Positions 1-53,492 of a stretch of 64,000 nucleotides of DNA are shown in pieces (position 1 is the first letter of the stretch; every line of letters starts with the position of its first letter). The stretch spans positions 1,632 through 65,631 of the forward strand of contig JBBAVV010000002.1 in NCBI GenBank assembly GCA_040397545.1. Reading direction: 5' to 3'. This DNA is from Pirellulales bacterium. Lineage in GTDB: Bacteria > Planctomycetota > Planctomycetia > Pirellulales > UBA1268. A model generated the notes under the pieces. It had not been told where the DNA came from and did no database searches. It was given only the letters and a program-made list of their open reading frames with translations. The translations under genes were made by a program, and so were the position numbers.

Positions 1-2
1 CT

Positions 3-80
3 CTGGTAGTAAGGGCCGAGGTGTCGCGGTATCCAATGAATGGCGAGGAAGCACAACGGATGTTGAGGGAACTGAAGTAA
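3..80 (+). CDS. 3' end of an ORF cut by the window edge (..LVVRAEVSRYPMNGEEAQRMLRELK*); possibly the immunity gene of a preceding cassette
   Basis: Frame is open from the window edge to TAA at 78-80. Same orientation as toxin cassette 1 and immediately upstream of it. Confidence 0.2.
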   Translation: MVVRAEVSRYPMNGEEAQRMLRELK

Positions 81-238
81 TGATTGCGGCAGCGATCATG
101 TCGGCATTCACGCAGCCAGCTCGACAAAATGCGTGAGGAGCATGGCTGGCCGGCTGGGTTTTCGGAGAGGGGAGAAGGTGCAGCCGCCAAGCCTATGTAA
201 AGCGTAACACGGCGATCTCCGAAGCGGGGTTCGCCTGA

Positions 239-1624
239 ATGTCGATCGTGGGGCCGGCATGGGCCGCGGTGGCCGACGCCATCGGCGCGTTTGCCGACGC
301 CTCGCAGGCCTGGGCTGACGCGGTCGGCAGTGCCTTTGTCGGCTGGGCGATGGCCCAAGCCCAGGCGGGTGCGGACTTCGGGATCGCAGGGGCGATCGCG
401 GGTGCCACTGCCGGCAAAGCCGCCGCGGCAGCGGGCTCGATCTATTCCGCGGCGGTCTCCAAGGCTGCGGGCGATCTGATGCGGGCGTTGAACGCGGTCC
501 AGACAGGCTTTGTCGACGCCGCGACAGAAGCGAGCGTCAAGGCGACGAAGGCGATCGCGGCCGCGGAGACGGTCGAGCGCAAGGCCGTCGCGAAGGCCGA
601 CGTCGTTCTCGCCCAGGATCTCCAGTCCGCCTGGGGAACGTACGCGGCGGCCGAGCGATCCGCCGTCACCCTCAATGCCCGCGAGCGCGCGACGATCGGC
701 GCCGACTCCAAAAAGGAAGTCGCCGGAGCGGAGCTCGCAGCGGTCAAGACCGTCGCCCCGGCCCGAAAGACGTCGATGGTCGCCACGGCCGAGGCCAATG
801 GGGTCTATCACGTCAAAGTGACGAGCATCGTCGCCGACTCGGGGATGCTCGGTGGGGAGATCAAGGTCGAAGCGACGAAGGCGAAAGCCTTGAGCATCAG
901 CGCCTGGCTGGGGAAGAAGGCCCAGGGGCTGTGGGACACGGCGAAGGACGTCGTCGGCACGATCAGCAAGTCGTACGACACCATCAGCCTGGCGGCCCAT
1001 ACCGCCTTGGGTGCGGGCGGAATGATTCCCGCCTTCGGTATCTTTCCCGACGCCGCTGATCTCGCCCTTACGCTCGTAGAGCTCCCGTTCGGGAAGTCAG
1101 ACGGCAAGGATGTCGCGCTGGCGACGGTGAGCCTCGTAACCACAGCTGCCCCGGGGCCGGTTGACATAGCCGCCGGCGGCGTGAAACTGACCGCGAGAAT
1201 GGCCAAGGCGGGCGCCAAGGTCGCCGATGCAGGAAGGCCCTTTATTGATGGGGCGGCGGCGGCTGGACACAGCCTGCAAGCGCAGGCCAGAGTGCAGAAG
1301 GTGAGGAACGCGACTTGGGGAGCTGTCGTCGAGCACGGCGAGACGGCGATGGACCACATTCGCAGGGGCCATTTCCACGACTCGCGACCTGGTCGAGCAA
1401 CGAGTAGATTCAGCGAGGCAAATAGCTTGCCGGGAAAGATCAAGGCCTTGGTCCAGGAGGCCGTGGCGAAAGGAAATCACTCAATAAACAGCCGAGGCCA
1501 GACGTCGATTCGGCACACGTTTGACGAGGTCATCGGCGCAGATGCCAATGGACGTAAGACAAGGTCACTTCGAATATTCATAGACGAACTCAGTAACGTC
1601 GTTAACGCGTTTCCTGTCCACTAA
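239..1624 (+). CDS. polymorphic-toxin-like protein 1: Ala/Gly-rich N-terminal module, PT-TG-like linker, C-terminal EndoU-like RNase domain (tentative)
   Basis: 461-aa ORF. The first ~210 aa contain a glycine-zipper stretch (GADFGIAGAIAGATAGKAAAAAG) and are shared with ORF 2110-3642. The unique lower-GC C-terminal half has GMIPAFGIFPDAADL..FGKSDGKD (PT-TG-like). It ends HIRRGHFHDSRPGRATSRFSE..IKALVQEAVAKG..LRIFIDELSNVVNAFPVH, which resembles bacterial EndoU-type toxin domains. A small ORF follows 12 nt downstream. Confidence 0.8.
   Translation: MSIVGPAWAAVADAIGAFADASQAWADAVGSAFVGWAMAQAQAGADFGIAGAIAGATAGKAAAAAGSIYSAAVSKAAGDLMRALNAVQTGFVDAATEASVKATKAIAAAETVERKAVAKADVVLAQDLQSAWGTYAAAERSAVTLNARERATIGADSKKEVAGAELAAVKTVAPARKTSMVATAEANGVYHVKVTSIVADSGMLGGEIKVEATKAKALSISAWLGKKAQGLWDTAKDVVGTISKSYDTISLAAHTALGAGGMIPAFGIFPDAADLALTLVELPFGKSDGKDVALATVSLVTTAAPGPVDIAAGGVKLTARMAKAGAKVADAGRPFIDGAAAAGHSLQAQARVQKVRNATWGAVVEHGETAMDHIRRGHFHDSRPGRATSRFSEANSLPGKIKALVQEAVAKGNHSINSRGQTSIRHTFDEVIGADANGRKTRSLRIFIDELSNVVNAFPVH
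293..870 (+). repeat. 578-bp direct repeat, copy 1 (5' module of toxin gene 1)
   Basis: Aligns without indels to 2287-2864 at a constant offset of 1994 nt. About 55 mismatches counted by eye. Confidence 0.9.
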
Positions 1625-1636
1625 TTAACATCCACC

Positions 1637-2095
1637 ATGATCACTATAGATTACTCACTCAAGCCGTCGACAATACAGAGGGATCGAAGCACCTTTAACA
1701 TGCATACGCTCGACGAAGTCGGCCTAAGAAAAATTGGCCGAGGAAGACTCTTCGTCGTCGACGATAAACAGCGAGTCTATTTCATAGTTGATTCGCAAGT
1801 GCTCGACTACGCCAATCAGCTCGTCGGCGTAGTTTCTGAGTTTGAAAGGGGGAATCGCGAGACTTTCGCGGTCTCACCGGACTTCTTCAGCAACAACCTT
1901 CGATTTACACTCGATCCGCAATCGAGAGACATGGAGGTGTACGAAGAAAATGGCGGCAGCTTTCGATTGAACTTCAAGTACAAGGCATTCAAGGAAGCGA
2001 TCCGTATTTTCTATCAGGGTATGCTAAGAGATTTTTTGCTTTACTATCCGGAACTGTCTGATAACATCGCCTTTCAACGACTCGTCTCTCAGTAG
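1637..2095 (+). CDS. putative cognate immunity protein 1 (hypothetical, 152 aa)
   Basis: Small same-strand ORF 12 nt after the toxin 1 stop. Markedly lower GC than the flanking core. No recognisable family. Confidence 0.6.
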   Translation: MITIDYSLKPSTIQRDRSTFNMHTLDEVGLRKIGRGRLFVVDDKQRVYFIVDSQVLDYANQLVGVVSEFERGNRETFAVSPDFFSNNLRFTLDPQSRDMEVYEENGGSFRLNFKYKAFKEAIRIFYQGMLRDFLLYYPELSDNIAFQRLVSQ

Positions 2096-2109
2096 GTCGA
2101 CACCGCTTC

Positions 2110-3642
2110 TTGAACGGGCTGTTTTCCCGGGAGGAAAAAAGGGGGAAAGGTGCCAGCAACAAATCTAGGGCGGCGCGACCAGTAGGTCGCCGGGCAGGGC
2201 TGGCGTGGGCCACGATCGTGGAGCCGGCGTGTTGCGCGGCGGCAGCGGCCCAAGCCGCGGCCGCCGCCGCAGCGATCGGCGAGCTAGCCGACGCCTCACG
2301 GGCCTGGCAAAACGCGGTCGGCAGCGCGTTTGTCGGCTGGGCCATGGCCCAAGCCCAGGCTGGTGCCGACTTCGGGATCGCCGGCGCGATCGCGGGTGCC
2401 ACGGCCGGCAAAGCCGGCGCGGCAGCGGGCACGATCTATTCCGCGGCGGTCTCCAAGGCTGCTGGGGATCTGACGCGGGCGCTCAATGCGGTTCAGACCG
2501 GATTTGTCGACGCCGCGACAGCGGCGAGCGTCAAGGCGACGAAGACGATCGCGGCGGCGGAGACGGTCGAGCGAAAGGCCGTCGCGAAGGCCGACGTCGT
2601 TCTCGCCCAGGATCTCCAGTCCGCCTGGGGCACGTACGCGGCAGCCGAGCGATCCGCCGTGACTCTCAACGCCCGCGAGCGGGCGACGATCGGCGCCGAC
2701 TACAAAAAGGAAGTCGCCGGAGCGGAGCTCGCAGCGGTCAAAGCCGTCGCCCCGGCCCGGAAGACCTCGATGGTCGCCACGGCCGAGGCCAACGGCGTCT
2801 ATCACGTCAAAGTGACGGGCATCGTCGCCGACCTGGGGATTCTCGGCGGGGAAATCAAGGTCGAGCAGGTGAAGGCATCCCACAGCCTGATCTCGCCGGC
2901 AACGCTCAAGAAATGGCTCGACGTGCTCTCCACCTGCGGCGACATGACTGTGGCCGCCGTCAAGGGGCTCGCGCAGGGGGCGGCGAACAGCCCCAATGGA
3001 GCGCAGGACAGTTTCGCCCACACCGGAAACCTGTTCTTAACCTACGTCAATACGGTCGCGGACGTCACCGATGCATTTGTCGGAACACCCAAGGACCAGC
3101 GGATTCGCGTGCCGATGATCCCCTTGGTCGACTGGTCGCGAGGCCGCTTCGTGGCTGAGACCGACTCCGATCACGGCACGAGCAAGACCGCAGGCGGATT
3201 CGGCCTCGGTGTCCTTGGGCCAATGGGGTATGCAAGGCTTGCATCCCTGCGAAACCTGAGCACTGTTGACGGAGCCGGACTCCTCGCAAAGAACCTAGCA
3301 ACAAGGGCTTGGCCAGCCGCTTCCGTCGAAACTGCCATTGCAAGACATGCCGGCAACAATTGCACAACATGGCTGACGGCCACTGGAAAGCGAATTTTTG
3401 AGAATCCACAGACTGGTCGACAGGTGGTTGTGGACCTCCAGGGAGGCTATTTTCGTATTTTTCAGCCAAATGCAGTGGGGAGCAGCAAGGGAACCTACCT
3501 CAACATGTTAGGACGTGAGGTCCGTCCGGCTCGTCACACACCGAACGGGATCCAGAATCCGTTGCTGAGGGATCTGGACAAGGGAATGTGGCAGCAAGAA
3601 ACACACTTCTTCATCGAAGAGATTCTTCGCAAGGCGAGGTGA
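2110..3642 (+). CDS. polymorphic-toxin-like protein 2: same N-terminal module, unrelated C-terminal domain of unknown family
   Basis: 510-aa ORF. The start is uncertain: TTG at 2110 in the track, while homology to cassette 1 begins near 2215. Residues AWQNAVGSAFVGWAMAQAQAGADFGIAG..GGEIKVE parallel toxin 1. The sequence then diverges into a lower-GC C-terminus (..GKRIFENPQTGRQVVVDLQGGYFRIFQPN..ETHFFIEEILRKAR). Confidence 0.75.
   Translation: MNGLFSREEKRGKGASNKSRAARPVGRRAGLAWATIVEPACCAAAAAQAAAAAAAIGELADASRAWQNAVGSAFVGWAMAQAQAGADFGIAGAIAGATAGKAGAAAGTIYSAAVSKAAGDLTRALNAVQTGFVDAATAASVKATKTIAAAETVERKAVAKADVVLAQDLQSAWGTYAAAERSAVTLNARERATIGADYKKEVAGAELAAVKAVAPARKTSMVATAEANGVYHVKVTGIVADLGILGGEIKVEQVKASHSLISPATLKKWLDVLSTCGDMTVAAVKGLAQGAANSPNGAQDSFAHTGNLFLTYVNTVADVTDAFVGTPKDQRIRVPMIPLVDWSRGRFVAETDSDHGTSKTAGGFGLGVLGPMGYARLASLRNLSTVDGAGLLAKNLATRAWPAASVETAIARHAGNNCTTWLTATGKRIFENPQTGRQVVVDLQGGYFRIFQPNAVGSSKGTYLNMLGREVRPARHTPNGIQNPLLRDLDKGMWQQETHFFIEEILRKAR
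2146..2170 (+). repeat. 25-nt cassette-junction motif AAAGGTGCCAGCAACAAATCTAGGG
   Basis: 23 of 25 nt identical to 4028-4052. Both copies lie just downstream of an immunity-type ORF. A weaker relative (GAAGGTGCAGCCGCCAAGCCT) lies at 174-194, upstream of toxin 1. Confidence 0.6.
2287..2864 (+). repeat. 578-bp direct repeat, copy 2 (5' module of toxin gene 2)
   Basis: See 293-870. Similarity stops at the codons for GGEIKVE in both genes. Confidence 0.9.
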
Positions 3643-3645
3643 CCG

Positions 3646-4008
3646 ATGCAAATGAGCCAACTTTTTCGCCGCGGGATTCTTAGGCCGGTCGACGACACCG
3701 CCGCAAATGAACTGTCGTCATTCCACATCACGCAGCCTATTTTAGTTGAGTGGCTGCCCATTCCATCGGATGGCCAGTTTCAGCTGATCTGGGACTCCGG
3801 ACTTTTTCAGCGGATAAATGAGGCCTGTGGGCTTGCCATCTCCGACTTCGAAGAAGTTGAATTACCATGGAGCCGCATTCGTGACGCGATTCAAGCAGCC
3901 CAACTGAGCAGGTCGCAAGATCCGCACGTGAGAGCGTTCACCGTCATGACAACAACCCTCCTTGAGCGGGCATGGCAGTCAGAGCACAGCGTGTTTTTTG
4001 TTTTATAG
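3646..4008 (+). CDS. putative cognate immunity protein 2 (hypothetical, 120 aa)
   Basis: ATG lies 3 nt after the toxin 2 stop. Low GC. No recognisable family. Confidence 0.6.
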   Translation: MQMSQLFRRGILRPVDDTAANELSSFHITQPILVEWLPIPSDGQFQLIWDSGLFQRINEACGLAISDFEEVELPWSRIRDAIQAAQLSRSQDPHVRAFTVMTTTLLERAWQSEHSVFFVL

Positions 4009-4027
4009 CTTGGTTTCCTTCGGTCAA

Positions 4028-4052
4028 AAAGGTGCCAGCCACCAAATCTGGG
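4028..4052 (+). repeat. 25-nt cassette-junction motif, second copy (AAAGGTGCCAGCCACCAAATCTGGG)
   Basis: Matches 2146-2170. It is followed by ~200 nt with no intact toxin ORF before the convergent sulfotransferase gene. Confidence 0.6.
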
Positions 4053-4262
4053 AGAGTTGGGCGATCTGCTGGCAGCGGATGCAATCGCTGCTCAAGCAGA
4101 AGCTTCGCAGGCGGAGCCAGCGGCGCTGGTCCGCATTGACGGGCGCCGCTGCAGGCCACGCCACGGGCACGGCGGGGGCGCCGACGCTCGAGCGAGCTCG
4201 CTGGCTTTGTTGAGGCCGATATCGCTCGAGGCTCGAGCCGCGTCGGTGGTCTATCGTTGACG

Positions 4263-4979
4263 TCAGGCTGCCCGGCGGGCTGGCGATGCCACCGCCGACT
4301 GACGGCGGTAGTACCAGCCGAAGTAGCTGCGGGCGGCCGGCGCCAGAGCGCCGGCTTCGTCGAGGTATGGCGAGAGATCGCGGACCGGGCGCGGGCCGAC
4401 GTTGCAGCGATCGAGGCTCGTCACCGGGGTCTCGATCCCCCACTCGTCGGTCAGGGCGGCGAGGTCGTCGTCGATGGATTCCAGGTCGAGCAGCCGGGTG
4501 TTCTCCCAGGCCTGCCCGCCGACGTCGAAGAAGTTGTCGTACTTGGGGAGTTCCCGCCGCAGGATCGCGCGCTCGAGAAAGGTCCGGAACGAGTCGGTCT
4601 TCGCGGCGGCGATCAGCGGTGTGATCGGCTCGGTGCCGAAGTCGTAGCTCTTCCAATACTCGAACAACGACACGAGCATCGCCAGCGGCTCGCGGACGAC
4701 GCCGATGATCCGCAGCGGCGGCGGCTGATGGGGGAGGATGTGGCGGGCGAGGCTGCCGACGGCGTTCCGCCCCGATCGCCCCAGGAAACGGAGGGACTGC
4801 GGGGCGATCCCGAGCCGGTCGAGCGATTCCCGGACCGAGAGGTGGCTGACCGGGTGGATCGGGTCGGGTTTGACGAAGGCGGCGTCCGGGAACGTCGCCC
4901 GGAACCACTTCACCATCGAGTGCCCGGCGGTCTTCGGGTAGTGGGCGAAGGCGATCCCATGCCGGCGACTGTAGAGCAT
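4263..4979 (-). CDS. sulfotransferase family protein
   Basis: N-terminal AHYPKTAGHSM (PAPS 5'-phosphosulfate-binding-loop type) and IIGVVREPLAMLVSLF (3'-phosphate-binding-motif type). 238 aa. Confidence 0.65.
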   Translation of the reverse strand: MLYSRRHGIAFAHYPKTAGHSMVKWFRATFPDAAFVKPDPIHPVSHLSVRESLDRLGIAPQSLRFLGRSGRNAVGSLARHILPHQPPPLRIIGVVREPLAMLVSLFEYWKSYDFGTEPITPLIAAAKTDSFRTFLERAILRRELPKYDNFFDVGGQAWENTRLLDLESIDDDLAALTDEWGIETPVTSLDRCNVGPRPVRDLSPYLDEAGALAPAARSYFGWYYRRQSAVASPARRAA

Positions 4980-5255: not shown

Positions 5256-6104
5256 ATGAGCCCGCTTGCCGCTGCGATCCCCTCCCCTGCCCCGACCGCC
5301 CGGCAGCCGCTCCGCCTGGTGATGCACGGTGCCGCGGGGAGAATGGGGCAGCGAATCATCGCCTGTGCGGCGGCGGAACCGGCGCAGTGGACGCTCGTGG
5401 CGGCGGTCGATCGGGCCGGTCACCCTCGGACCGGGACCGACGCCGGGACCCTCGCCGGAGTGACGGCGGCCGGTGTCGCCATCAGCGACGGCTGGACCTG
5501 CTCGGCCGATGTCGTCATCGATTTCTCCCTCCCCGGCGCCGTGGCAGCGATCGCGGCGGAATGCGTCGCCCGGAAGGTGCCGCTGGTCGTGGCGACCACC
5601 GGCCTCGAGGTCTCCGACCAGGCAGCGATCCACGAGGCCGCCAAGCAGATCGCCGTCCTCCAGTCCCCGTCGATGAGCCTGGCTGTGAATGTGGCGATGG
5701 ATCTCGTGTCGCGAGCCGCGGCGCTCCTCCACCGCACCGGCGTGCGGGCCGATGTGGAGATCATCGAGTGCCACCACCGCCACAAGGAGGATTCGCCGAG
5801 CGGCACGGCGCTCAAGTTCGGTCATCTCGTCGCGGCCGCGATGGGGCAGACGAGGGCCGCCCACGGCCGCGAGGGGCGCCCCGGCGCCCGGCCGGCCGAC
5901 GAAATCGGCTACCACGCCGTCCGCGGCGGTGACAATCCCGGCGAGCACACGATCCTCTTCGGCCTCGAGGGGGAATCGCTCTCCGTCAACGTCCGGGCGA
6001 CCAACCGCGACTGCTATGCCCGTGGGGCCCTGGCTGCTGCGGCGTTCCTCGCCGGGAAGCCGGCGGGGCTCTATTCGATGCGCGACGTGCTCGGGATCGC
6101 CTGA
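5256..6104 (+). CDS. dapB: 4-hydroxy-tetrahydrodipicolinate reductase
   Basis: N-terminal Rossmann segment LRLVMHGAAGRMGQ. Carries the DapB signature EIIECHHRHKEDSPSGTALKFG. The 282-aa length fits. Confidence 0.9.
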   Translation: MSPLAAAIPSPAPTARQPLRLVMHGAAGRMGQRIIACAAAEPAQWTLVAAVDRAGHPRTGTDAGTLAGVTAAGVAISDGWTCSADVVIDFSLPGAVAAIAAECVARKVPLVVATTGLEVSDQAAIHEAAKQIAVLQSPSMSLAVNVAMDLVSRAAALLHRTGVRADVEIIECHHRHKEDSPSGTALKFGHLVAAAMGQTRAAHGREGRPGARPADEIGYHAVRGGDNPGEHTILFGLEGESLSVNVRATNRDCYARGALAAAAFLAGKPAGLYSMRDVLGIA

Positions 6105-6281
6105 CGGTGCGCCGAATTGTCGCGCTGAGTTTGATGTCCTGACGGGTGTGGCGGGGACCGGATGTCACACGCCCGGTCGACCGCGGCTACAATCTCTCCG
6201 CGCGTAGCCCGGGGGGTTCGGCCGCGTCGTCGGGCACGCCCCCCCACTTTCACTTGCATCCTTTTTTTCGCAGGGATCAGC

Positions 6282-9200
6282 ATGCGACTCACGGCCTGGC
6301 TCCGCTCGCTCACGTTCGTCGGCCTGATACTCCTCGGAAGTGTGGCGCCGGCGGACGATTTTCCCGCGCCGCCGAACACCGAGAAGTCGACCGAGCTCCC
6401 GATGGATCCGGCCGAGGTCTGCCGGACAGCGAAGCTCCCCCCCGGCTTCGCGCTCCAGGTGTTTGCCGCCGAGCCCGACGTCCAAAACCCGATCGGCCTG
6501 TGTACCGATGCACGAGGCCGGGTGTGGGTGGCGGAGAACTTCACCTGGGCGGGGAGCAACCTCGGGGGGTGGGATGACACGCTGCGCGACCGGGTCACGG
6601 TGCTCACCGATACCGATGGCGACGGGAAGCATGACGAGCGGACGGTGTTTTGGGATGGCGGCACGAGGCTGACGAGCGTGGCGGTGGGACTCGGAGGGGT
6701 GTGGGTGATCGACCTGCCCCATCTCCTCTTCATCCCCGATCGCGACGAAGATCTCGTCCCCGACGGCCCCCCCGAGATCGTCCTCGACGGCATCGACGAG
6801 AAAAGCGTCGGCCACACCCCGTGCAACGGCCTGAAGTGGGGCCCGGATGGCTGGCTGTGGGCCCGGCACGGGATCCAGGCAACGTCGCGGATCGGCGTCC
6901 CGGGGGCGGGGGATTCGCAGCGGGTGGAGATCAACACCGGCGTGTGGCGCTACCATCCCGGCCGCAAGGTCGTCGAGGGGGTGATCTCCGGGATGACGAA
7001 CTCCTGGGGCACCGACTTCGACGAGCATGGCGAAGCGTTCGTCATCAACACCGTCATCGGCCATCTGTGGCATGCCGTCCACGGGGCGCACACCGAGCGG
7101 ATGTATGGCACCGATCTGGAGTCGCATGTCTACGATCTCGTCCCGCAGGTGGCTGACCACGTCCATTGGGATACCGGCGAGAAGTGGAGCGACATCCGCT
7201 TCGGCGTCTCCGACAAGACCAGCGCCGCCGGCGGGGGCCATGCCCACATCGGCCTGATGATCTACGGCGGCACCAACTGGCCGCGCGAGTACCGCGGCGG
7301 GGTGTTCACGCTCAACCTCCACGGCCGGCGGATCAACCACGACCGCCTCGCCCCACTCGGGGCCGGCTACACCGCGTCGCACGGCGACGATCTCTGCTTC
7401 ATCGTCGATCCGTTCTATCGCGGCATGGATCTCGTCAGCGGCCCCGACGGCGGGGTCTACATCGCCGATTGGTCCGACACCGGCGAGTGCCACGACCATG
7501 ACGGCGTCCACCGCACCAGCGGCCGGATCTACAAGCTCGTCTACGGTGCCCCGCGGAACCCGGCCCGCGTCGATGTCGCCGCGCTCGAAGGGACGGCCCT
7601 GCGCGGCAATCTCCTCGTCGCCGACCAGTGGTGGAGCCGTGCGGCGGTGCGCGAGTGGCAGAGGCGGGCGCTGCGGGGCGACGACCTCGCCGCCGACATC
7701 GCCTGGCTCCGCGGGCATGCCGCGGAGGCCGCCGATCCCGCCCACCGCCTCCGCGCCCTGTGGGCCCTGGCCGCGATCGACCAGCCGGCGGTGGCCCTCG
7801 ATGAGGCCTTCCTGCTGGCGCGCCTCGACGATCCCGATCCGTTCGTGCGCAGCTGGGGGGTGCGGCTCCTGGTCGACGCCTGTTCGGCGGGGGGCCGGCA
7901 GCCCTCTCCGGCGGCGGTCGAGAGGCTCGTGGCCCTGGCCGGCACCGATCTGGCCGGCCCGGTGCAGCTCCATCTCGCCTCGGCGGTCGGTCGGCTCGCC
8001 GACGGCCCCGCCTGGGAGCTCGCGGGTGCGCTTGCCCCCCACGACACCTTCGCCACCGACGCCCAGTTTCCGAAGCTCGTGTGGTTTGGGCTGGCGCCGT
8101 CGGTCGCCCGGCATCCCGATGCGGCGGTGGCCCTCGCCGGCACCGCGGCGCTGCCGCAGCTGCGGCGCAACCTCGCCCGGTGGGTGGCCGGCCGTGTCGA
8201 CGAGCGCCCCGACCTCGTGGCGACGCTCCTCAAGACGGCCGTCGACGGGGATCCGCTGCGGCGCCGGGACCTCGTCACCGGCCTGGCCGACGGCCTCCGC
8301 GGCTGGCGGCAGGCCGCCCCTCCGGCCGGCTATGCAGACCTGTCGGCGGCGCTTGCCGCGGCTCCCGACGAGGCCACCGTGCAGGCCGTCCGCGAGCTCG
8401 ACGTCCTGTTCGGCGCGGGACGGGGCATGGAGACGGTTCGGCAGGTGGCCCTCGACGGCTCAGCCGCGCCCGAGGCCCGTCGCCAGGCGGTGCGGACGCT
8501 CGTGGCCACGGTGCCCGAGGATGGCGCCGCGCTTCTCCAAGGGCTTCTGGGGGACCGTCCCGTGATCGCCGAGGCGCTGGCGGGACTGGCCCGCTACGAC
8601 CATCCCGATACCCCGGAGAAAGCCCTCGGCCCGGCGGGGATCTTTGCCCCTGCCGACCGGGCGGCGCTGGTCGATCTCCTCGCCTCGCGCCCGCCCTATG
8701 CCGCGAAGCTCCTCGACGCCGTCGAGAGGGGGCAGGTCCGGGCCGAGGAGATCTCGGCCTTCCATGCCCGCCAGATCGCCGATTTCGGCGACGAGGCGCT
8801 CGCGGAGCGGCTCGGGAAGCTGTGGGGTCAGGTGCGCGTCAGCGCGGCTGACAGGAAAGAGCTCATCGAGCGCTGGCGGAACGAGCTCTCCTCCGACGTC
8901 ATCGCGGCCGCCGATCGGGGCCACGGCCGGGTGCTGTTTGCCAGGGACTGCGCGAGCTGCCATGTCCTGTTCGGCGAGGGGCGCAAGCTCGGCCCCGATC
9001 TGACCGGCTCAAATCGCAAGAACCTCGACTACCTCCTCGAGAACGTCATCGATCCCGGCGCGAGTGTCGGGGCCGACTTTCGGGCGGTGTCGTTCGTTCT
9101 CTCCGACGGCCGGGCGCTGACCGGCGTGATCAGTGCCGCCGACGACCGGACCCTCACCATCCAGACCGCCCAGGCGCCGATCGTCCTCGACCGCCACGAC

Positions 9201-9356
9201 ATCGCCGAGCAGGTGGTTCAGGAGCAGTCGCTCATGCCCGACGGGCTCCTCTCGAAGCTCTCGGCCGACGATGTCCGCGACCTCGTCGCCTACCTGACAT
9301 CACCCGATCAGGTTCCCCTGCCGGACGACAAGACGGCAGCCTCCGACAAGCCTTGA
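6282..9356 (+). CDS. PVC-type haem-binding protein (putative membrane-bound dehydrogenase domain, HEAT-like repeats, C-terminal cytochrome c)
   Basis: Signal peptide MRLTAWLRSLTFVGLILLGSVAPADD starts at the internal ATG 6282. C-terminal CASCHVLFGEGRKLGPDLTG haem motif, ending ..MPDGLL..DLVAYL. The architecture is common in Planctomycetota/Verrucomicrobiota. Confidence 0.8.
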   Translation: MRLTAWLRSLTFVGLILLGSVAPADDFPAPPNTEKSTELPMDPAEVCRTAKLPPGFALQVFAAEPDVQNPIGLCTDARGRVWVAENFTWAGSNLGGWDDTLRDRVTVLTDTDGDGKHDERTVFWDGGTRLTSVAVGLGGVWVIDLPHLLFIPDRDEDLVPDGPPEIVLDGIDEKSVGHTPCNGLKWGPDGWLWARHGIQATSRIGVPGAGDSQRVEINTGVWRYHPGRKVVEGVISGMTNSWGTDFDEHGEAFVINTVIGHLWHAVHGAHTERMYGTDLESHVYDLVPQVADHVHWDTGEKWSDIRFGVSDKTSAAGGGHAHIGLMIYGGTNWPREYRGGVFTLNLHGRRINHDRLAPLGAGYTASHGDDLCFIVDPFYRGMDLVSGPDGGVYIADWSDTGECHDHDGVHRTSGRIYKLVYGAPRNPARVDVAALEGTALRGNLLVADQWWSRAAVREWQRRALRGDDLAADIAWLRGHAAEAADPAHRLRALWALAAIDQPAVALDEAFLLARLDDPDPFVRSWGVRLLVDACSAGGRQPSPAAVERLVALAGTDLAGPVQLHLASAVGRLADGPAWELAGALAPHDTFATDAQFPKLVWFGLAPSVARHPDAAVALAGTAALPQLRRNLARWVAGRVDERPDLVATLLKTAVDGDPLRRRDLVTGLADGLRGWRQAAPPAGYADLSAALAAAPDEATVQAVRELDVLFGAGRGMETVRQVALDGSAAPEARRQAVRTLVATVPEDGAALLQGLLGDRPVIAEALAGLARYDHPDTPEKALGPAGIFAPADRAALVDLLASRPPYAAKLLDAVERGQVRAEEISAFHARQIADFGDEALAERLGKLWGQVRVSAADRKELIERWRNELSSDVIAAADRGHGRVLFARDCASCHVLFGEGRKLGPDLTGSNRKNLDYLLENVIDPGASVGADFRAVSFVLSDGRALTGVISAADDRTLTIQTAQAPIVLDRHDIAEQVVQEQSLMPDGLLSKLSADDVRDLVAYLTSPDQVPLPDDKTAASDKP

Positions 9357-9468
9357 GCGAACGCGCCGGGAGCGCCGGCGGAAGCGGCGCGTGGGGTGAA
9401 AGTCTTGGACTGCCGCCGGATTGCGTTGGGAGGGTACATTTTCCGGCATCCGCCGGTCAGGCGGAGGA

Positions 9469-11706
9469 ATGGCTGGCTTGCAGGAGTGGCACGTGGCGGA
9501 CGACGATCGGCTCATCGTGCAGGCGAAGCTCCTCTACCGCGGCCCCAACCGCTGGTCGGCGCTGCCGGTCCACGAGGTGGAGGTCGACGCCGGGAGTCTG
9601 GCCGAATGGTCTCTCCGCAGCGATGCTCCCGCCATGGGCAGGATCGCCGGATGGCGGGAACGCCTCGAGACGACGCCCTACGAGGTCGCCGCGGAGCGGG
9701 CTGCGACCGGAGAATCACCGCCGCGGCGGGCCGGCCCGTCCTTCGACGAGCTCGCCACGGCCTCCGGCCCCGGGCCGGTCCTCCTCTGGCTCGAGGCCAC
9801 GCTCCTGGCGACGGCCGGGATCGTGCCCCGTTTCGCCCGCTGGGTGGGCGGCGGTCGGAGATTCCGCCTGGCGGTCGAGCTCGACGACGAGGAGGTGTCG
9901 GCCGCCGCGCTCGAGCTGGCGCGGAAACTGTTGCTGGCGGCGATCGACGACGGCCCGGTCGACGTCGGGGAGGAGCTGGCGACGTTCGCCGAATTCGCCG
10001 ACGACTCGCGGCTGGGGCCGAGCACGCGCGCGATCGTCCGCGCCGCCCAGGCCCGGGGCATCCCCTGCCGCCGGGTCACGAACAACAGCCTCTGCCAACT
10101 CGGCGAGGGGGTGTGGAAACGGCGGATCTGGACCGCCGAGACCGACGCCACCGGCGCCATCGCCGAGGCGCTGGCGCAGGACAAGCAGATGACCCGCATG
10201 CTCCTCGAGCAGGTCGGGGTGCCGGTGCCGCGCGGCCGGGTGGCGACGAGCGTCGAGGAGGCCTGCCTGGCCGCCGCGGAGCTCGGCTTCCCCGTCGTCG
10301 TCAAGCCGCGCGACGGCAATCACGGGCGCGGCATCTCGTTCGGGGTCCGTGACGACGACGACATGCACGAGGCGTTCGAGATCGCCATCCGCGAAAATCA
10401 CCGCCGCTCCGGCGGCGTGATCGTCGAGCAGTTCGCCCATGGCGTCGCCCATCGCCTCCTTGTCGTGGGGGAGCGGTGCGTGGCGGCGGCCCGTGGTCAG
10501 AACGACGTCGTCGTCGGCGATGGCGTGCGCACGATCCGCGAGCTCGTCGATGACGCCAACCGCGACCCGCTCCGCGGACCGAACTTCACCGATATCCTCT
10601 CGGTCATGAAGCTCAACGATCTGGCGGTGGGGCTGCTGCGGCGGCAGTCGCTCGAGCCGGGGAGCATCCCCGCCGTGGGGCGCCGCGTGACGATCAAGGT
10701 CAACGGCGACCTGACCACCGACGAGACCGACGAGATCCATCCCGACGTCGCCCGTCACGCCGTTCTCGCCGCCCGGGCCGTCGGGCTCGATATCGCCGGC
10801 ATCGATCTCGTCGCCGAGGAGATCGGCCGCCCCCTGTGGGAGCAGCGGGGGATGGTGATCGAGGTCAACGCCGGACCGGGGATGTTCATGCACATCGCCC
10901 CGAAGCAGGGGAAACCGCGACCGGTGGGGGAAGCGATCGTCGACTTGATGTTCAAGGGGGAGGACGATGGTCGCGTACCGGTGATCGCCGTCGCCAATGG
11001 TCCGGTGTCCGGGGAGGTGGCTGGTGCTGTGGCCGGTTTTCTCCGCGGCGGGGGCATCGTCGCCGGGATGGCGGCCGGGACGCGGATCGATGTGCCGGGG
11101 CAGGCCTCGTACGAGTTCCCCGGTTCTGATCGCGACCGCGCGATCGCGCTGCTGGCCCATCCGCACGTCGAGGCGGTGATCCTCGTGAGCCGGCCGGCCG
11201 ACGCGGCGGTCGAGGGGCTCGCCACGCTCCACTGCGAGGTCGCCGTCCTCGCGCCGATCGCCGGTCCCGACGACACCGCCTCGGGGCCGATCGATCCCGC
11301 CACCGCCACGTTCCTCCACGCGATCGAGCCGGACGGCGTGGCGATCCTCGACGCAGCGGCCCCCACGGCCGATGCGATCCTCGCCTCCGTTGGCCAGCGG
11401 GTGGTCCTCGTCGTCGACGGGCCGGTCGTGGGGGCGGTCGCTGCCCGCGTCGGCGCCCATCGGATCTCCGGTGGACGTGTCGTCCACCGCACCGGCACGG
11501 TGGCCAGGCTCTGCGCCGGGCGGGCCGAGCATGATCTCTCCGCCGCTGATCTCGCGGCGGTCATCCCGGCACTTCCGGCCGGCATCGCCGGGGCTGTGGC
11601 GCTAGCGGCGGTGTGGGCGGCGGGGCTCCTCCCCAGGGATCGGCTCATCTCCCCCGGCCCGGTCGCGGCCCGACTGCGGTTCGCCGCGGGAGGTGGCGAT
11701 GCGTGA
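9469..11706 (+). CDS. cyanophycin-synthetase-like protein with intact ATP-grasp domain and degenerate Mur-ligase-type domain (CphA2-like?)
   Basis: N-terminal LLYRGPNRWSALPVHEV, ATP-grasp FPVVVKPRDGNHGRGISFGV, and VIEVNAGPGMFMHIAP..PRPVGEAIVDLMF. Where CphA has the P-loop (..AVTGTNGKTT..) this protein reads VPVIAVANGPVSGEVA. The start was chosen at ATG 9469. Confidence 0.75.
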   Translation: MAGLQEWHVADDDRLIVQAKLLYRGPNRWSALPVHEVEVDAGSLAEWSLRSDAPAMGRIAGWRERLETTPYEVAAERAATGESPPRRAGPSFDELATASGPGPVLLWLEATLLATAGIVPRFARWVGGGRRFRLAVELDDEEVSAAALELARKLLLAAIDDGPVDVGEELATFAEFADDSRLGPSTRAIVRAAQARGIPCRRVTNNSLCQLGEGVWKRRIWTAETDATGAIAEALAQDKQMTRMLLEQVGVPVPRGRVATSVEEACLAAAELGFPVVVKPRDGNHGRGISFGVRDDDDMHEAFEIAIRENHRRSGGVIVEQFAHGVAHRLLVVGERCVAAARGQNDVVVGDGVRTIRELVDDANRDPLRGPNFTDILSVMKLNDLAVGLLRRQSLEPGSIPAVGRRVTIKVNGDLTTDETDEIHPDVARHAVLAARAVGLDIAGIDLVAEEIGRPLWEQRGMVIEVNAGPGMFMHIAPKQGKPRPVGEAIVDLMFKGEDDGRVPVIAVANGPVSGEVAGAVAGFLRGGGIVAGMAAGTRIDVPGQASYEFPGSDRDRAIALLAHPHVEAVILVSRPADAAVEGLATLHCEVAVLAPIAGPDDTASGPIDPATATFLHAIEPDGVAILDAAAPTADAILASVGQRVVLVVDGPVVGAVAARVGAHRISGGRVVHRTGTVARLCAGRAEHDLSAADLAAVIPALPAGIAGAVALAAVWAAGLLPRDRLISPGPVAARLRFAAGGGDA

Positions 11707-13132
11707 GCGTCGTGTGGACCGTCGACAGCCGCCGGCGATGTCGCGGCGCGGGTTCCTCGATCTGTCGGTCGGCGGGGCGGCCGGCGCCGGGCTCGGGCTC
11801 ACGCTCGGCGGCCTCCTCCGGGCCCGCGTCGCCGGCGCCGAGCTGGCGGTGGCCCGTCCGATCCGCTCCTGCATTCTCCTCTTCTGGTACGGCGGCCCGA
11901 GCCATCTCGACACGTTCGACATGAAGCCGTCGGCCCCCGCCGATATCCGCGGCGAGTTTGCCTCGATCTCCACCGCGGTACCCGGCGTGCAGATCTGCGA
12001 GCACCTCCCGGGGCTGGCCCGGGTGATGGACAAGATCGCGATCGTGCGAAGCATGCACCACGAGGCGAATCTCCACGATTCGGCTTCGATCCATGCCCTC
12101 ACCGGCCGGCCTCTCGAAGGACCGGACCGGGAGCTGTTCGTGCCGACGCGGCAGTTCCATCCCTCCCACGGCAGCGTCGTCTCGGCGCTCAATCCGGCCC
12201 CGGTCGGCGAGGTGCCCTTCGCCTCGCTGCCGCATGTGTTTCGCAATGTCCATCCTGTGCCCTGCCAGGGGGCCGGCTTCCTCGGGGCCGCGCACGACCC
12301 GCTGCTCATCGACGTCGATCCGGTCGCGCGGACGTATCCTGTCGATGCCCTCCTGCCGCGGCAGGGCTCCGATGCCTTCCGTCGCGCAGGCCGCCTCGGC
12401 CTCCTCTCGGCCCTCGACCACGCCACCGCGGCGGTGCCCGGAGCCAATCCCTTTTCCGCCTTCACAGATCGGGCCTGTCGCCTCCTCGAATCGGAGGCGA
12501 TCCGCGAGGCGCTCGATGTCTCGCGGGAGCCGGCGCGTGTCCGGGAGGCCTACGGCTTCACAGCCGACCCCCTTTCCGCCGGCGAAGTCAACGGCGGCGG
12601 CGGCGAGATGGGGGTGGCGCGGCAGATGCGGGGGCAAAATCTCCTCGTGGCGAGGCGGCTCGTCGAGGCGGGGGTGCCGTTTGTGAATGTCTACGACTAC
12701 CGCCAGCAGGGGCAAAACTGGGACGCCCACGTCAAGTGCGCCAGCCAGCACAAGAACCATCTCCTCCCGATCGCCGATCGGTCGCTCGCCGCGCTGATCA
12801 CCGATCTCGACGAGCGTGGCCTCCTCGAATCGACGCTCGTCGTGGCGATGGGGGAGTTCGGGCGGACGCCGAAGATCAATTCAGGCGCCGGCCGCGACCA
12901 TTGGCCCCACTGCTATTCGGTGCTCTTGGCCGGCGGCGGGATCCAGGGAGGGGCGATCCATGGGGCGAGCGACCGGAGCGGCGCGTTTCCGGTGGCCGAT
13001 CCGGTCGAGCCGGGGGATCTGGCCGCGACGATCTTCTGGCGATTCGGGATCGATCCTGCCCGGGAGATCCACGACCCGCTCGGCCGTCCGCATCGCATCG
13101 CCACGGGCTCTCCTGTCCGGGCGATCTTCTGA
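11699..13132 (+). CDS. DUF1501 domain protein (sulfatase-like fold), TAT signal
   Basis: MSRRGFLDLSVGGAAGAG twin-arginine leader. GEFGRTPKINSGAGRDHWPHCYS motif. GGAGG lies 6 nt upstream of ATG 11699. Overlaps the cphA-like stop. Confidence 0.85.
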   Translation: MRERRVDRRQPPAMSRRGFLDLSVGGAAGAGLGLTLGGLLRARVAGAELAVARPIRSCILLFWYGGPSHLDTFDMKPSAPADIRGEFASISTAVPGVQICEHLPGLARVMDKIAIVRSMHHEANLHDSASIHALTGRPLEGPDRELFVPTRQFHPSHGSVVSALNPAPVGEVPFASLPHVFRNVHPVPCQGAGFLGAAHDPLLIDVDPVARTYPVDALLPRQGSDAFRRAGRLGLLSALDHATAAVPGANPFSAFTDRACRLLESEAIREALDVSREPARVREAYGFTADPLSAGEVNGGGGEMGVARQMRGQNLLVARRLVEAGVPFVNVYDYRQQGQNWDAHVKCASQHKNHLLPIADRSLAALITDLDERGLLESTLVVAMGEFGRTPKINSGAGRDHWPHCYSVLLAGGGIQGGAIHGASDRSGAFPVADPVEPGDLAATIFWRFGIDPAREIHDPLGRPHRIATGSPVRAIF

Positions 13133-14721: not shown

Positions 14722-16158
14722 TCAGCCCATCAGCTCCGCGATCGGCTTGCCATGGTCGACGACCGGCGTCGGCCGGCCATTGAGATCGTCGATCATCACC
14801 CGCGGGGCATCGATGCCGAGGTGGTGGTAGATCGTCGCCAGGAAATCCCCCGCCGTGCAGCGGCGCTCGGTGACATCCTCCCCCTTGCGATCGGTGGCCC
14901 CGACGACGCGGCCGGTCTGGATGCCGCCGCCGGCCCAGATGTTGGAATAGGCCCGCGGCCAGTGATCGCGGCCCGGCTGCTTCGTGCCGGCCGGGGCGCT
15001 GGCGGCTCCCTCCCCTGTGCTCGGCGAATACTCGATCCGCGGCGTGCGGCCAAACTCACCGGTGACGACAACGAGCACGCGCTTGTCGAGGCCGCGGTCG
15101 TAGAGGTCTTCGATGAGCGCCGTCACCGACTGATCGTAGGCATCGGCCCGGTAGCGGAGGGCATCGAAGACATGGTGGTTGACGGCATGGTCGTCCCAGT
15201 TGCCGACGCGGCCACACAAGGGACCGGCGAGCTGCGTGGTGACGATGTCGACCCCCGCCTCGACGAGCCGGCGGCACATGAGGAGCTGTTGCCCCCAGGC
15301 ATTGCGGCCGTAGCGGTCGCGCGTCGAATCATCCTCGCGCGAAAGGTCGAAGGCCTCCTTCGTGCGGGCGTTGGTGAGAAGCGTCATCGCTTGGGTTTCG
15401 AATTGGTCGAGGGCCTGAAAGTCGGCCTGCTTTTCAATCGCCCGCTCGAGGGCATCGAATTGCTGGCGGAGGGCGACGCGGCGGTCGAGTCTGGCGCCGT
15501 CACGCCCCGAGGCGGTGCCGATGTGGGGCACCGTGAAGCTCGGCTGGTTCGGGTCGCCGGAGACGACAAACGGCTGGTAGGCGTCGCCGAGATAGGCCGG
15601 CCCGTTGTATTCCAGCGGTGGGCTGACGCCGACGTAGCGCGGGAGCGGGTTGTCGCGCGGCCCCTCCTTGGCGCGGAGGTAGTTGGCCACCGTCATCCAG
15701 TCAGGGTATTTCGGCTTCGGCTTGTCGCGCGTGTCGGGATCGCCGGAGAGCATCTGCATCGAACCGGCCGGATGGCCACCGGCCGTCTGCTGCATCGACC
15801 GCAGCACGGTGAACTTGTCGGCGATCCGCGCCTGCCGGGGGAGGAGCTCCGTGAACTGCACCCCGGGGATCTTCGTCTGGATCGTCTGGAAGGGCCCACG
15901 GTACTCGCTCGAGATATCGGGCTTGGGGTCGTAGGTGTCGATGTGGGAGGCGCCACCGGGGAGCCAAACCATGATCACGGCGGTCGGCTGCTTGCCGGCG
16001 GCCGGCGTCTCGGCCCGCGCCCGGAGAATACCGGGGAGCGAGAGCCCCCCGAGGCCGGCCATGCCGATGCGGAGGAGCTCGCGGCGCCCCATCGCGCCGG
16101 CGTGTGGCACCGGCATCCGTCCGAACGGACCGGGGCAGTTGACGGGAAACTGGCTCAT
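14722..16158 (-). CDS. DUF1501 domain protein
   Basis: GEFGRTPRIE..GRDHWPRAYS motif. The start overlaps the upstream gene stop by 4 nt. Confidence 0.85.
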   Translation of the reverse strand: MSQFPVNCPGPFGRMPVPHAGAMGRRELLRIGMAGLGGLSLPGILRARAETPAAGKQPTAVIMVWLPGGASHIDTYDPKPDISSEYRGPFQTIQTKIPGVQFTELLPRQARIADKFTVLRSMQQTAGGHPAGSMQMLSGDPDTRDKPKPKYPDWMTVANYLRAKEGPRDNPLPRYVGVSPPLEYNGPAYLGDAYQPFVVSGDPNQPSFTVPHIGTASGRDGARLDRRVALRQQFDALERAIEKQADFQALDQFETQAMTLLTNARTKEAFDLSREDDSTRDRYGRNAWGQQLLMCRRLVEAGVDIVTTQLAGPLCGRVGNWDDHAVNHHVFDALRYRADAYDQSVTALIEDLYDRGLDKRVLVVVTGEFGRTPRIEYSPSTGEGAASAPAGTKQPGRDHWPRAYSNIWAGGGIQTGRVVGATDRKGEDVTERRCTAGDFLATIYHHLGIDAPRVMIDDLNGRPTPVVDHGKPIAELMG

Positions 16159-21017: not shown

Positions 21018-21644
21018 ATGCCGCTCTCCGTGACCTGCACCTGTGGACTCGTCTATTCGGTTTCTTTAACGCGGGCCGGCAGCGTGATTGCCTGCCGCTG
21101 CGGTCGCGCAATCGCTGTTCCAGAGGCGAATCGGCCGACACCGCCACCGGTTTCCGCGCTCGGCCGGGATCAGCCGCGGGAGGCGAGCACCGCCGACGAC
21201 ACGATCCACGCCATCAAGCGGATGATCCGCACGCGCGAACTGCCGGCGCCGGGCAAATGCCCCCACTCCGGCAAGCCTGGCAACGACGTCATCGTCTTCA
21301 GGCTTCACTTCGACCCCGTGGCCGAGGAGGCGCTGGCGGCCACCGAGCAGGCCTCGGCGGCGGCGGGCGGCTGGAGTCTGTTCGGCCTGTTTTCCGGCAA
21401 GCGGGGGACGGCCATGGTGAAGCAGCCCTCGGAGAGCCTCGGCCGCGATGTGTGGGTCGATATGCCGGTGCGGGTGGCACACGAAGCCCATGCCGAGATT
21501 CTCCTCTCGCGGAGCCAGCAGCACCTCCGCGACATGCTCCGCACCGTGCCGATCTACGCACAGCTCCTCGCCGAGCATCGCACGGCGCGGATCGAAACGC
21601 TCCCCCGCCACAGCGACGGCCAGCCGAATCACGCCCGCCACTGA
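21018..21644 (+). CDS. hypothetical protein with N-terminal Cys-rich zinc-ribbon-like motif
   Basis: MPLSVTCTCGLVYSVSLTRAGSVIACRCGRAIAVPE. 208-aa ORF in a divergent intergenic context. Confidence 0.55.
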   Translation: MPLSVTCTCGLVYSVSLTRAGSVIACRCGRAIAVPEANRPTPPPVSALGRDQPREASTADDTIHAIKRMIRTRELPAPGKCPHSGKPGNDVIVFRLHFDPVAEEALAATEQASAAAGGWSLFGLFSGKRGTAMVKQPSESLGRDVWVDMPVRVAHEAHAEILLSRSQQHLRDMLRTVPIYAQLLAEHRTARIETLPRHSDGQPNHARH

Positions 21645-21908
21645 TGCGCCGCGGCGGCGGCGGCGGGGCTGGGGCGGGCCCCCGGAGGCTGGCGGCCACC
21701 AGCGCGCCGGTGAGCCTCCGACCCGCCGGCATTCGGTGTTTCCCCCCGCGCCTCCTCCCCCTACGATCCCCTCTCGGATACCGACCGCGGCTGGAGTCGC
21801 CCCCGGGGGCCGGCCGTGGGTCAATCGCCCTTTCGACCTAGTGCCCGGGACCGACCAGCAGGTGCGGCGGCGGGGGCCACGGAATGCCTGTGAGGAGATC
21901 GCATCCCC

Positions 21909-22583
21909 GTGTTCCCGATCTTGCGTCAACCGCCGGTGACCCAGCGGGGAATGGTGATCTTCGCGCTCCAGCTCCTGATGGTCGTTCTGATTCCCGTCCT
22001 CGACGACGGTGGGCAAATCGTGCCGATGCCCTACGCGGCCGCGGCGCTCACGGTGGCGATGCTGACGGTCCGATTCCTCGGCTACCAGCGTACCGCTGGG
22101 GCGATCGCCGCGGTCGGCATCGCCGCGATCGTCTGGGAGATCGGTGTGCCCAGCGTCCCCTCGCTGTTGCGGCTTCCGCTCTGGCTGGCGATCGTCGCCG
22201 CCTGCATCACTTCCGCGGTGCTGTGCATCAAGTCGGCCTTCGCCCTCCGCATGCCCCCGGTGCAGCGGATCTTCTGCGGGGCCGCGAGCTTTGTTTTGAT
22301 CGGCTTCTTGTTCGCGAGCCTCCACGCGCTGGTCGGAATCGGCACTGGGAACGGCTACACGCTCGTCGGCGGCGTCGAGGAGGCCCGGCCGCTGCGGTGG
22401 GTCGATTTCATCTGGTTGAGCTTCTCCACGCTCACCACCTCCGGCTTCGGCGATCTGGCGCCTGTGAATGCCACGGCCTGCGCGATCGCGACCCTCGAGT
22501 CGCTGTGCGGGATCCTCTTCCCGGCCACGCTCATCGCCCGGATCACCTCGCTCCCTGCGGCCCCCCACGGGAGTAGCGGCTAG
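21909..22583 (+). CDS. two-TM potassium-channel-like protein
   Basis: Several hydrophobic helices and the selectivity-filter-like sequence TLTTSGFGDLAP. Confidence 0.7.
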   Translation: MFPILRQPPVTQRGMVIFALQLLMVVLIPVLDDGGQIVPMPYAAAALTVAMLTVRFLGYQRTAGAIAAVGIAAIVWEIGVPSVPSLLRLPLWLAIVAACITSAVLCIKSAFALRMPPVQRIFCGAASFVLIGFLFASLHALVGIGTGNGYTLVGGVEEARPLRWVDFIWLSFSTLTTSGFGDLAPVNATACAIATLESLCGILFPATLIARITSLPAAPHGSSG

Positions 22584-53321: not shown

Positions 53322-53492
53322 GAGAAACTCCGGGCGGAGCCGACGCGGCCGGGGGGGGCCGGCGCTGGCGGGGAGGGAGCGGGCGGGGAGGGAGACGCGG
53401 AGGGCGGAAGGGAGTGTAGAAAAAGATCCGGCGGAGCGGCGACCGATCGTCTGCCCCCCTCCGCCCCCAGCCCCTCACCCCGAGGCTCCGCG

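Follow-up and report, generated by a model that had tools for sequence, protein, structure and literature searches.

Predicted toxin/immunity cassettes at the probable distal end of a polymorphic toxin array in a Pirellulales bacterium

Classes of polymorphic toxins are set by the carrier or trafficking region of the toxin protein, as in CdiA, Rhs, LXG, MafB and MuF. The systems themselves were defined by Zhang et al. (2012, PMC3482391), who listed polymorphic toxins of planctomycetes and noted solo WXG proteins and a YueA-like ATPase in this phylum; thus, neither the type of system nor its presence in planctomycetes is new. Arrays of 5'-truncated modules that keep some constant sequence define the orphan cdiA-CT/cdiI modules of contact-dependent inhibition (CDI) loci (Poole et al. 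2011, PMC3150448), and orphan rhs-CT modules (Koskiniemi et al. 2014, PMC3967940) and the MafB cassettes of Neisseria (Jamet & Nassif 2015, PMC4436062) have also been described. Here we analyzed a stretch of 64,000 nt from a Pirellulales bacterium (contig JBBAVV010000002.1; hereafter the window), in which two large open reading frames (ORFs), designated T1 and T2, are each followed by a small ORF, I1 and I2, respectively. The toxin ends of T1 and T2 are referred to as CT1 and CT2. The locus is strongly supported as a set of toxin-plus-immunity cassettes of a polymorphic toxin family. Our preferred reading, to which we assign a probability of about 0.7, is that positions 1-4262 represent the distal end of a lineage-specific polymorphic toxin array of freshwater Planctomycetia in which T1 and T2 are truncated cassettes.

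A preliminary description, made from the sequence without database searches, had proposed polymorphic toxin/immunity cassettes at this locus, and its account of the ORF positions, the region shared by T1 and T2, the drop in GC content and the tightly coupled small ORFs was found to be correct. The products of T1 and T2 share 85% amino acid identity across 224 residues (E = 3e-101), with 90.5% identity between DNA positions 263-870 and 2254-2864, and no third copy of this DNA was detected elsewhere in the 64-kb window. GC content is ~0.70 where T1 and T2 are alike and drops to 0.47-0.53 in their unrelated C-terminal halves and in the small ORFs, which lie 12 nt (T1 to I1) and 3 nt (T2 to I2) past the large ORFs. 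None of the four ORFs was matched in Pfam, NCBIfam, PHROGs, PADLOC or the PDB sequences.

Relatives were found to have a modular architecture. With T1 as the query, 74 relatives were recovered among 5.8 billion proteins, all of them belonging to metagenomes or to metagenome-assembled genomes (MAGs) of Planctomycetia, and a genome scan detected the family in seven loci only, in freshwater Planctomycetia MAGs. (Related loci that were fetched are numbered L001 to L017 and related proteins P0001 to P0098.) After a junction motif that closes the constant region, one of three alternative linkers is present: type A, as in T1 (45 of 76 sequences, comprising the 74 relatives, T1 and T2), type B, as in T2 (21 sequences), or type C, found with lipases. 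Linker B was 48-93% identical by tblastn to sequences in L001, L003, L004, L010, L012 and L014. Clustering of the last 105 residues separated 72 members into 31 C-terminal families, with the identical toxin type found behind differing linkers. Pfam domains at the C-terminal position were LHH, AHH, WHH plus Colicin-DNase, Tox-MPTase4, Ntox43, DUF2380 and Mbeg1-like/Lipase_3, and the downstream genes included the canonical immunity families SUKH and ankyrin repeats. The cassette proposal was upheld by these many C-termini on one constant region and by the recognised toxin and immunity families among them; as the preliminary description had anticipated, the 31 C-terminal clusters come with downstream small ORFs of their own.

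Two of the MAGs that carry the family (contig prefixes CAMBFA01 and CALQRA01, the sources of L007, L009, L011, L012 and L013) were obtained from lake samples and bear the title 'Candidatus Kuenenia stuttgartiensis'. Kuenenia is a low-GC organism, and both MAGs have the same high-GC (60-70%) toxin family and, by eye, the same DUF1553/DUF1501 neighbourhood as the other Planctomycetia MAGs; the label looks wrong.

The extent of the constant region was apparent from an intact head gene in the related MAG locus L011 (3254-8083; 4830 nt, 1,609 codons). This gene encodes, in order, an Arg-rich N-terminus, an Ala-rich part of ~1,150 aa (33.6% Ala, with long proline-free stretches and presumably all-helical), a region like that shared by T1 and T2, linker C and, last, an Mbeg1-like lipase. 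On its 3' side the head gene is followed by two ankyrin genes and then by the next cassette. Only trivial tandem repeats were detected within the gene. Within T1, window positions 266-833 correspond to head nt 3361-3928 (86% DNA identity), starting from codon ~1120 of 1609, and, within T2, window positions 2184-2843 to head nt 3284-3944 (84.6% by blastn), starting from codon ~1095. Because homology to the head begins only at nt 3361 and 3284, respectively, of 4830, T1 and T2 would be 5'-truncated, orphan-like cassettes that lack ~1,100 codons including the head N-terminus. The preliminary description had taken the ~210-aa shared region for an N-terminal module; it is instead the last ~220 codons (~650 bp) of a constant region of ~1,250 codons.

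Within this shared part, the glycine zipper GADFGIAGAIAGATAGKAAAAAG occupies aa 44-66 of T1 (nt 368-436). The constant region ends in the near-invariant junction motif EANGVYHVKVT.I.AD.G.LGGEIKVE (T1 aa 184-211), which reads EANGVYHVKVTGI[IV]ADLGILGG[EQ]I[KH]VE in relatives and EANGVYHVKVTGIIADLGILGGEIKVE in the head, and the near-invariant columns of a 68-sequence alignment span E165-A215. N-terminally longer relatives were also detected (P0041, P0050, P0054, P0062 and P0051), and intermediate truncations or deletions were represented by L013 (1,218 aa), by a pair composed of a 635-aa protein and P0062 in L005-L007 and by P0051, which has an internal deletion. A further relative, P0075 (263 aa, on a 1,069-nt JGI contig), joins an unrelated N-terminal segment with VQEAGCQMLRNL.../VQEAACVVLRKL... 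repeats to a head-gene segment (AKAAAAGVIYVGAV...) and reflects either recombination or a chimeric assembly.

The constant region, in the head gene as well as in T1 and T2, had no match in Pfam, NCBIfam, PHROGs, PADLOC or the PDB sequences, in agreement with the earlier statement that the shared region matches none of the known trafficking domains (RHS, LXG, PAAR, MafB, CdiA and MuF were all absent). When 417 aa of the constant region were searched exhaustively with HMMER against 1.84 billion representatives, only 36 proteins were returned, all with at least 53% identity. Because only close relatives were recovered by this search, the scaffold is lineage-restricted and lacks detectable distant homologs.

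The Ala-rich, long helical composition of the head protein resembles that of fibrous surface proteins and of tape-measure proteins, and silent-cassette arrays also occur in antigenic-variation systems. The locus could on this basis be one of surface-protein or adhesin antigenic variation, or one of phage origin that encodes a tail, a tape measure or the cargo of a contractile injection system, and not an interbacterial toxin system. However, the variable ends of the family are nuclease, metallopeptidase and lipase toxin domains accompanied by SUKH or ankyrin immunity genes, and small ORFs are co-inherited with these ends. Likewise, no matches to PHROGs or to phage genomes were obtained, and the flanks examined contained no phage or injection-system genes. 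An origin of this kind is considered very improbable.

Arrays were present in L001, L003, L011 and L015. In L001 the array begins right after housekeeping genes, and its first gene has a longer constant region together with a CT2/I2 pair. In our reading, the array has its head past the left edge of the window, which holds the two final cassettes. Consistent with the earlier claim that the array continues upstream, the first 300 nt of the window have a GC content of 0.61, compared to ~0.70 for the genome, and include the 3' end of a small ORF at the window edge. This ORF had no homolog among the fetched loci and probably belongs to the preceding cassette as its immunity gene, an assignment made by position only. 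The 44-kb contig of L003 carries IS66-family (TnpB plus DDE), ISL3 and Mutator-type transposases among its cassettes (1238-3714, 8560-9795 and 11322-12506), which suggests that the arrays are hot spots of insertion and recombination.

Co-inheritance of toxin ends and small ORFs was examined in the relatives. CT1 was found in P0001, P0002, P0004, P0012, P0014 and, preceded by a type-B linker, P0049, with the residues H-I-x3-H ... N ... G ... V-x3-F-P invariant in the alignment. In L015 a 152-aa ORF 97% identical to I1 lies 3' of the CT1 homolog P0004, and 152-aa ORFs also lie 3' of the CT1 homolog in L016 and of P0002. CT2 was 98.5% identical in L001 and L012, each time with an I2 homolog on its 3' side (92-97% identical; 92.5% in L001). 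By use of CT1, I1, CT2 and I2 concatenated as one search query, the core of CT2 was further detected on three unrelated scaffolds, with BLASTP identities of 70-71% for P0096 and P0097 and 64% for P0098 (66-67% and 56%, respectively, for the same comparisons in the alignment). P0096 carries a genuine Pre-toxin TG (PT-TG) domain (29.4 bits; cutoff 23.5), and in L017, which derives from a lower-GC organism, a 120-aa ORF 45% identical to I2 (E = 4e-38) begins 3 nt past P0096. Because the pair recurs on an unrelated PT-TG scaffold with the same 3-nt gap, the predicted toxin/immunity unit CT2/I2 is mobile. Taken together, I1 accompanies CT1, and I2 accompanies CT2 even on the PT-TG scaffold, such that conservation of the small ORFs with their upstream partners, as had been predicted, was observed, an outcome that favors the toxin reading. 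At the array terminus of L002 (3692-4228), only the last 57 codons of CT2 are kept before an intact I2 homolog (also in the 92-97% range), such that the immunity gene has outlasted most of its toxin.

The two toxin ends were next compared to known families and folds; their toxicity is suggested by context. A resemblance of CT1 to the bacterial EndoU RNases had been put forward from residue spacing. EndoU_bacteria (PF14436) was not supported: CT1 had no Pfam match at E <= 5 and no PDB sequence match, and sub-threshold EndoU_bacteria scores (15.7 and 16.8 bits; cutoff 25.3) were obtained only for the distant P0010 and P0021, which align with CT1 at just 20-23% identity. A profile search of CT1 against the PDB returned ClpC N-domain noise only (E ~0.06). 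The AlphaFold2 model of linker A plus CT1 had a predicted local distance difference test (pLDDT) score of 44.5 and was confident only in the last ~65 residues (a C-terminal helix, then beta-strands); with this model, too poor to judge an EndoU/BECR fold, the best Foldseek match was at E 0.24. The assignment of the T1 linker to PT-TG (PF14449) was likewise not supported, with no Pfam family at E <= 5 for positions 884-1300. The linker aligns in register with the PT-TG region of P0096 at an hhalign probability of 0.4% (E = 0.15); it is PT-TG-like by eye only, and its AlphaFold2 model is helical and of low confidence. For CT2, the model (pLDDT 68; core 81-89) consists of a helix, a beta-meander and a helix. 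No significant PDB match to CT2 was detected by profile search or by fold (best Foldseek E 0.3); a CDI toxin entry, 8ey4, was among the Foldseek matches but below significance (probability 0.54).

A 25-nt element, AAAGGTGCCAGCCACCAAATCTGGG, was found at the cassette junctions in L001-L016 and is invariant between loci. It precedes nearly every cassette, 51-52 nt before the constant-region boundary, and is 100% conserved though the coding sequence differs by ~15%; zero chance matches were expected. The degenerate copy within the window is 51 nt upstream of the T2 boundary codon, as in other short cassettes. The element contains an imperfect palindrome (GGTG-CCAGC-CACC), had no Rfam match and may serve as a promoter/operator, as a recombination site or as an RNA element. 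One copy occurs outside an array, between housekeeping genes, and a copy lies at L005 6396-6422. Most short cassettes have one fixed 5' boundary (...IAGAGLAWATIVGPAW).

The window and its relatives form mosaics of differing divergence. Compared to L001, CT2 is 98.5% identical and linker B 82%, with a synonymous divergence (dS) of ~0.5 in the constant region, and L015 and L016 share with the window T1, I1, the junction and the 5' part of T2 and then diverge. The ratio of nonsynonymous to synonymous divergence (dN/dS) of the constant region was 0.06-0.19 over all comparisons, 0.08-0.17 for T1 against other copies and 0.10 for T1 against T2 (dS 0.25). The constant part is still under purifying selection and is not decaying. 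In our reading, the full-length head gene encodes an Arg-rich N-terminus, an Ala-rich stretch, the ~220-aa region, one of the three linkers and a variable toxin, with at least one immunity gene on its 3' side. The constant region retained by the cassettes would be a substrate for homologous recombination, by which toxin/immunity modules may be exchanged among cassettes or brought into the head gene that is expressed, and the immunity genes would shield the cell against kin armed with those toxins.

Several findings weigh against this distal-array reading. A dN/dS of ~0.1 for T1 and T2 indicates a stronger constraint than expected of silent cassettes; therefore, the short forms may be translated and functional by themselves. 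In addition, the ATG of T1 immediately follows an in-frame TGA, and the start of P0001 is identical. The only intact head gene is that of L011, and its N-terminus was not confirmed in other loci: with the first 330 aa of the head as the query, a word-indexed search returned one fragment only, and a metagenome scan one partial locus. For the genome of the window itself no head gene is in view, because the window begins within the array. Neither CT1 nor CT2 had a match among known toxin families or folds, and no secretion machinery was linked to any locus examined when the flanks were scanned.

Some of these points would be explained if T1 and T2 were autonomous, independently translated toxins of ~460 aa, in which the ~210-aa region is sufficient for export, or docks or co-assembles with the long form by way of the helical region common to both, with several toxins displayed together. 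The start of T1, the strong selection on the constant part even between T1 and T2, and the 5' boundary fixed in most cassettes are in keeping with this alternative, as is the invariant element ahead of each cassette if it is a promoter or operator. However, the selection could come from frequent cycling of cassettes through the head position, and the short forms are without ~1,100 codons of the full-length gene, its N-terminus among them. Short forms far outnumber long forms in metagenomes, yet any array is expected to have more short forms than heads. For T2, moreover, the homology boundary offers no convincing start codon: its formal TTG at 2110 is probably not the true start, because homology to relatives begins at 2184, the candidates include GTG 2218, and the use of GTG or GTC at the boundary codon did not separate cassettes from long forms. 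The promoter and terminator scan was uninformative, with no sigma-70-like promoter upstream of T1 or T2, which is weak evidence for a planctomycete. Autonomous function is regarded as possible but unlikely, and truncated cassettes at the distal end of an array remain our preferred reading of T1 and T2.

The route by which such proteins might leave the cell was considered from the head protein and from the flanking genes. No Sec-type signal peptide was seen; the earlier claim to this effect stands to the extent that it too was judged by eye only. Hydrophobic segments were borderline, with a maximum Kyte-Doolittle value of 1.67 over 19 aa (1.26 for the glycine zipper). Just before the first conserved Met, the L011 ORF reads ...RRRREKRHRRARSVVGLDHEPLEPRQLMTG..., at this one locus only. 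This stretch resembles the 'LEPR-XLL' N-terminal domain named in RefSeq/NCBIfam, in which an LEPRxLL-type motif follows an Arg-rich N-terminus, a lead only; for the head N-terminus, no NCBIfam match to LEPR-XLL was obtained even at E <= 10, and no literature on it was found. EssC/YueA-type ATPase and WXG genes were not detected in the scanned flanks, and the genes upstream of the L011 head are, by eye, of the DUF1553 and DUF1501 types. The preliminary description had left the export route open in a lineage not known for type VII secretion systems (T7SS), which was overstated in view of the WXG proteins and the YueA-like ATPase noted in planctomycetes (PMC3482391). A more speculative possibility, which we consider improbable, is an undescribed planctomycete delivery class that has an Ala-rich helical stalk of ~1,500 residues and a non-Sec, lineage-specific N-terminal leader and that uses none of the type V, VI and VII secretion systems; the abundant short proteins would be translated and would co-assemble with the stalk through the shared glycine-zipper region of ~210 aa, and the junction element would be a promoter or operator. 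If so, one filament would display or deliver several toxins at once.

The coordinates of the cassettes and their parts are given in Table 1.

Table 1. Features at the left end of the window; positions are those of the window, and all lie on the plus strand.
Feature	Positions	Strand	Details
3' end of small low-GC ORF	3-80	+	TAA at 78-80; cut by window edge
T1	239-1624	+	461 aa
T1 constant region	239-871	+	aa 1-211; head-gene codons ~1120-1310
T1 linker type A	872-1231	+	aa 212-331
CT1, putative toxin domain	1232-1624	+	aa 332-461
I1, predicted cognate immunity gene of CT1	1637-2095	+	152 aa; GC ~0.48
T2	2110-3642	+	510 aa; formal TTG start
Degenerate junction element	2139-2163	+	1-nt deletion; sequence read and alignment
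T2 constant region	2184-2865	+	homology to head gene begins at 2184
T2 linker type B	2866-3234	+	aa 253-375
CT2, putative toxin domain	3235-3642	+	mobile core from ~nt 3310 (WPAAS...)
I2, predicted cognate immunity gene of CT2	3646-4008	+	120 aa
Conserved array terminus, I2 to flanking minus-strand gene	4009-4262	+	identity to L009 and L002
Junction element core	4028-4052	+	exact match to 25-nt element

To the right of the cassettes, the array terminus is 88% identical to L009 over 242 nt and 82% identical to L002 over 225 nt. The gene that flanks the array (4263-4979, minus strand, 238 aa) had only very weak sulfotransferase-like Pfam matches (E ~0.1). It is followed by dapB (5256-6104) and a PVC-type haem-binding CxxCH protein (6162-9356), and PSCyt2/PSD1 is also among the flanking genes, which mark the genome as one of planctomycete type in the PVC group. 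L002 is syntenic with the right flank of the window; the flanking gene is kept there between the array and dapB as a 252-aa minus-strand gene, followed by the PVC haem protein. When larger ORFs of the window were searched against Pfam, five matched ordinary families only (PSCyt2/PSD1, ABC-F, FG-GAP/ASPIC and GFO/IDH/MocA), five were without a match, and no secretion genes were found. A 1,364-aa ORF (50283-54377, plus strand) had no Pfam match at E <= 1e-4, and several other long ORFs were likewise without a match (16155-18326, 21066-22760 and 61384-63666). Spurious reading frames on the wrong strand, frequent at a genomic GC content of 70%, may account for some of these.

The features by which Zhang et al. 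recognise polymorphic toxin systems were compared to those of the array. A shared constant region with many C-termini, a co-varying downstream immunity gene and neighbouring truncated cassettes are all present, and recognised toxin families are found in the family as a whole and not in CT1 or CT2, with the qualification that CT2 does recur on a PT-TG scaffold. The toxin/immunity modules are drawn from the common pool, but the carrier (~1,250 aa) is lineage-specific. If active, the system points to an uncharacterised export or delivery route across the unusual planctomycete envelope, and would add at least two toxin domains (CT1 and CT2) and two immunity families (I1 and I2) without an assigned fold; its practical weight is limited, both because fragmented freshwater MAGs are the only source of this lineage and because the general scheme is a familiar one.

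By analogy, the layout of the array matches that of the published orphan modules of CDI and Rhs loci. Similarly to CDI, a large filamentous head protein carries a variable C-terminal toxin after a conserved motif (VENN in CDI, EANGVYHVKVTGIIADLGILGGEIKVE here), a cognate immunity gene lies directly 3' of the toxin, and arrays of 5'-truncated toxin/immunity modules keep some constant sequence, are exchanged between strains and have insertion sequence (IS) elements within them. By contrast to CDI, the planctomycete system has no two-partner secretion (TPS) domain, filamentous haemagglutinin (FHA) repeats, CdiB partner or Sec signal (no Pfam or NCBIfam match to CdiA/CdiB features was detected in T1, T2 or the L011 head), its stalk, rich in Ala, is presumably alpha-helical where that of CDI is a beta-helix, and the constant segment kept by its cassettes is unusually long (~650 bp), has a fixed boundary and is under strong purifying selection. 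With Rhs and MafB the system shares the logic of a head gene and silent cassettes, with recombination-driven toxin switching and immunity repertoires, but it has no RHS/YD repeats (Pfam detected no RHS match anywhere in the family), is linked to neither PAAR nor VgrG and lacks the N-terminal (DUF1020) domain of MafB. Because none of the defining domains is present, we place the system outside the CDI, Rhs and MafB families. The LXG proteins of T7SS are similar in having a presumably helical carrier that lacks a Sec signal, toxins that vary at the C-terminus and are followed by immunity genes, and a common pool of toxin domains (LHH, AHH and Ntox, with PT-TG on relatives). They differ in that the carrier here is ~1,250 aa compared to ~200 aa, has no LXG or WXG100 match and has no linked EssC/YueA-type ATPase or WXG gene in the loci examined. 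Thus, a head gene accompanied by orphan cassettes and immunity genes is an arrangement already well known from other systems, and what is new is the giant Ala-rich carrier without distant homologs, the long constrained constant segment, the invariant junction element and the two predicted toxin/immunity pairs.

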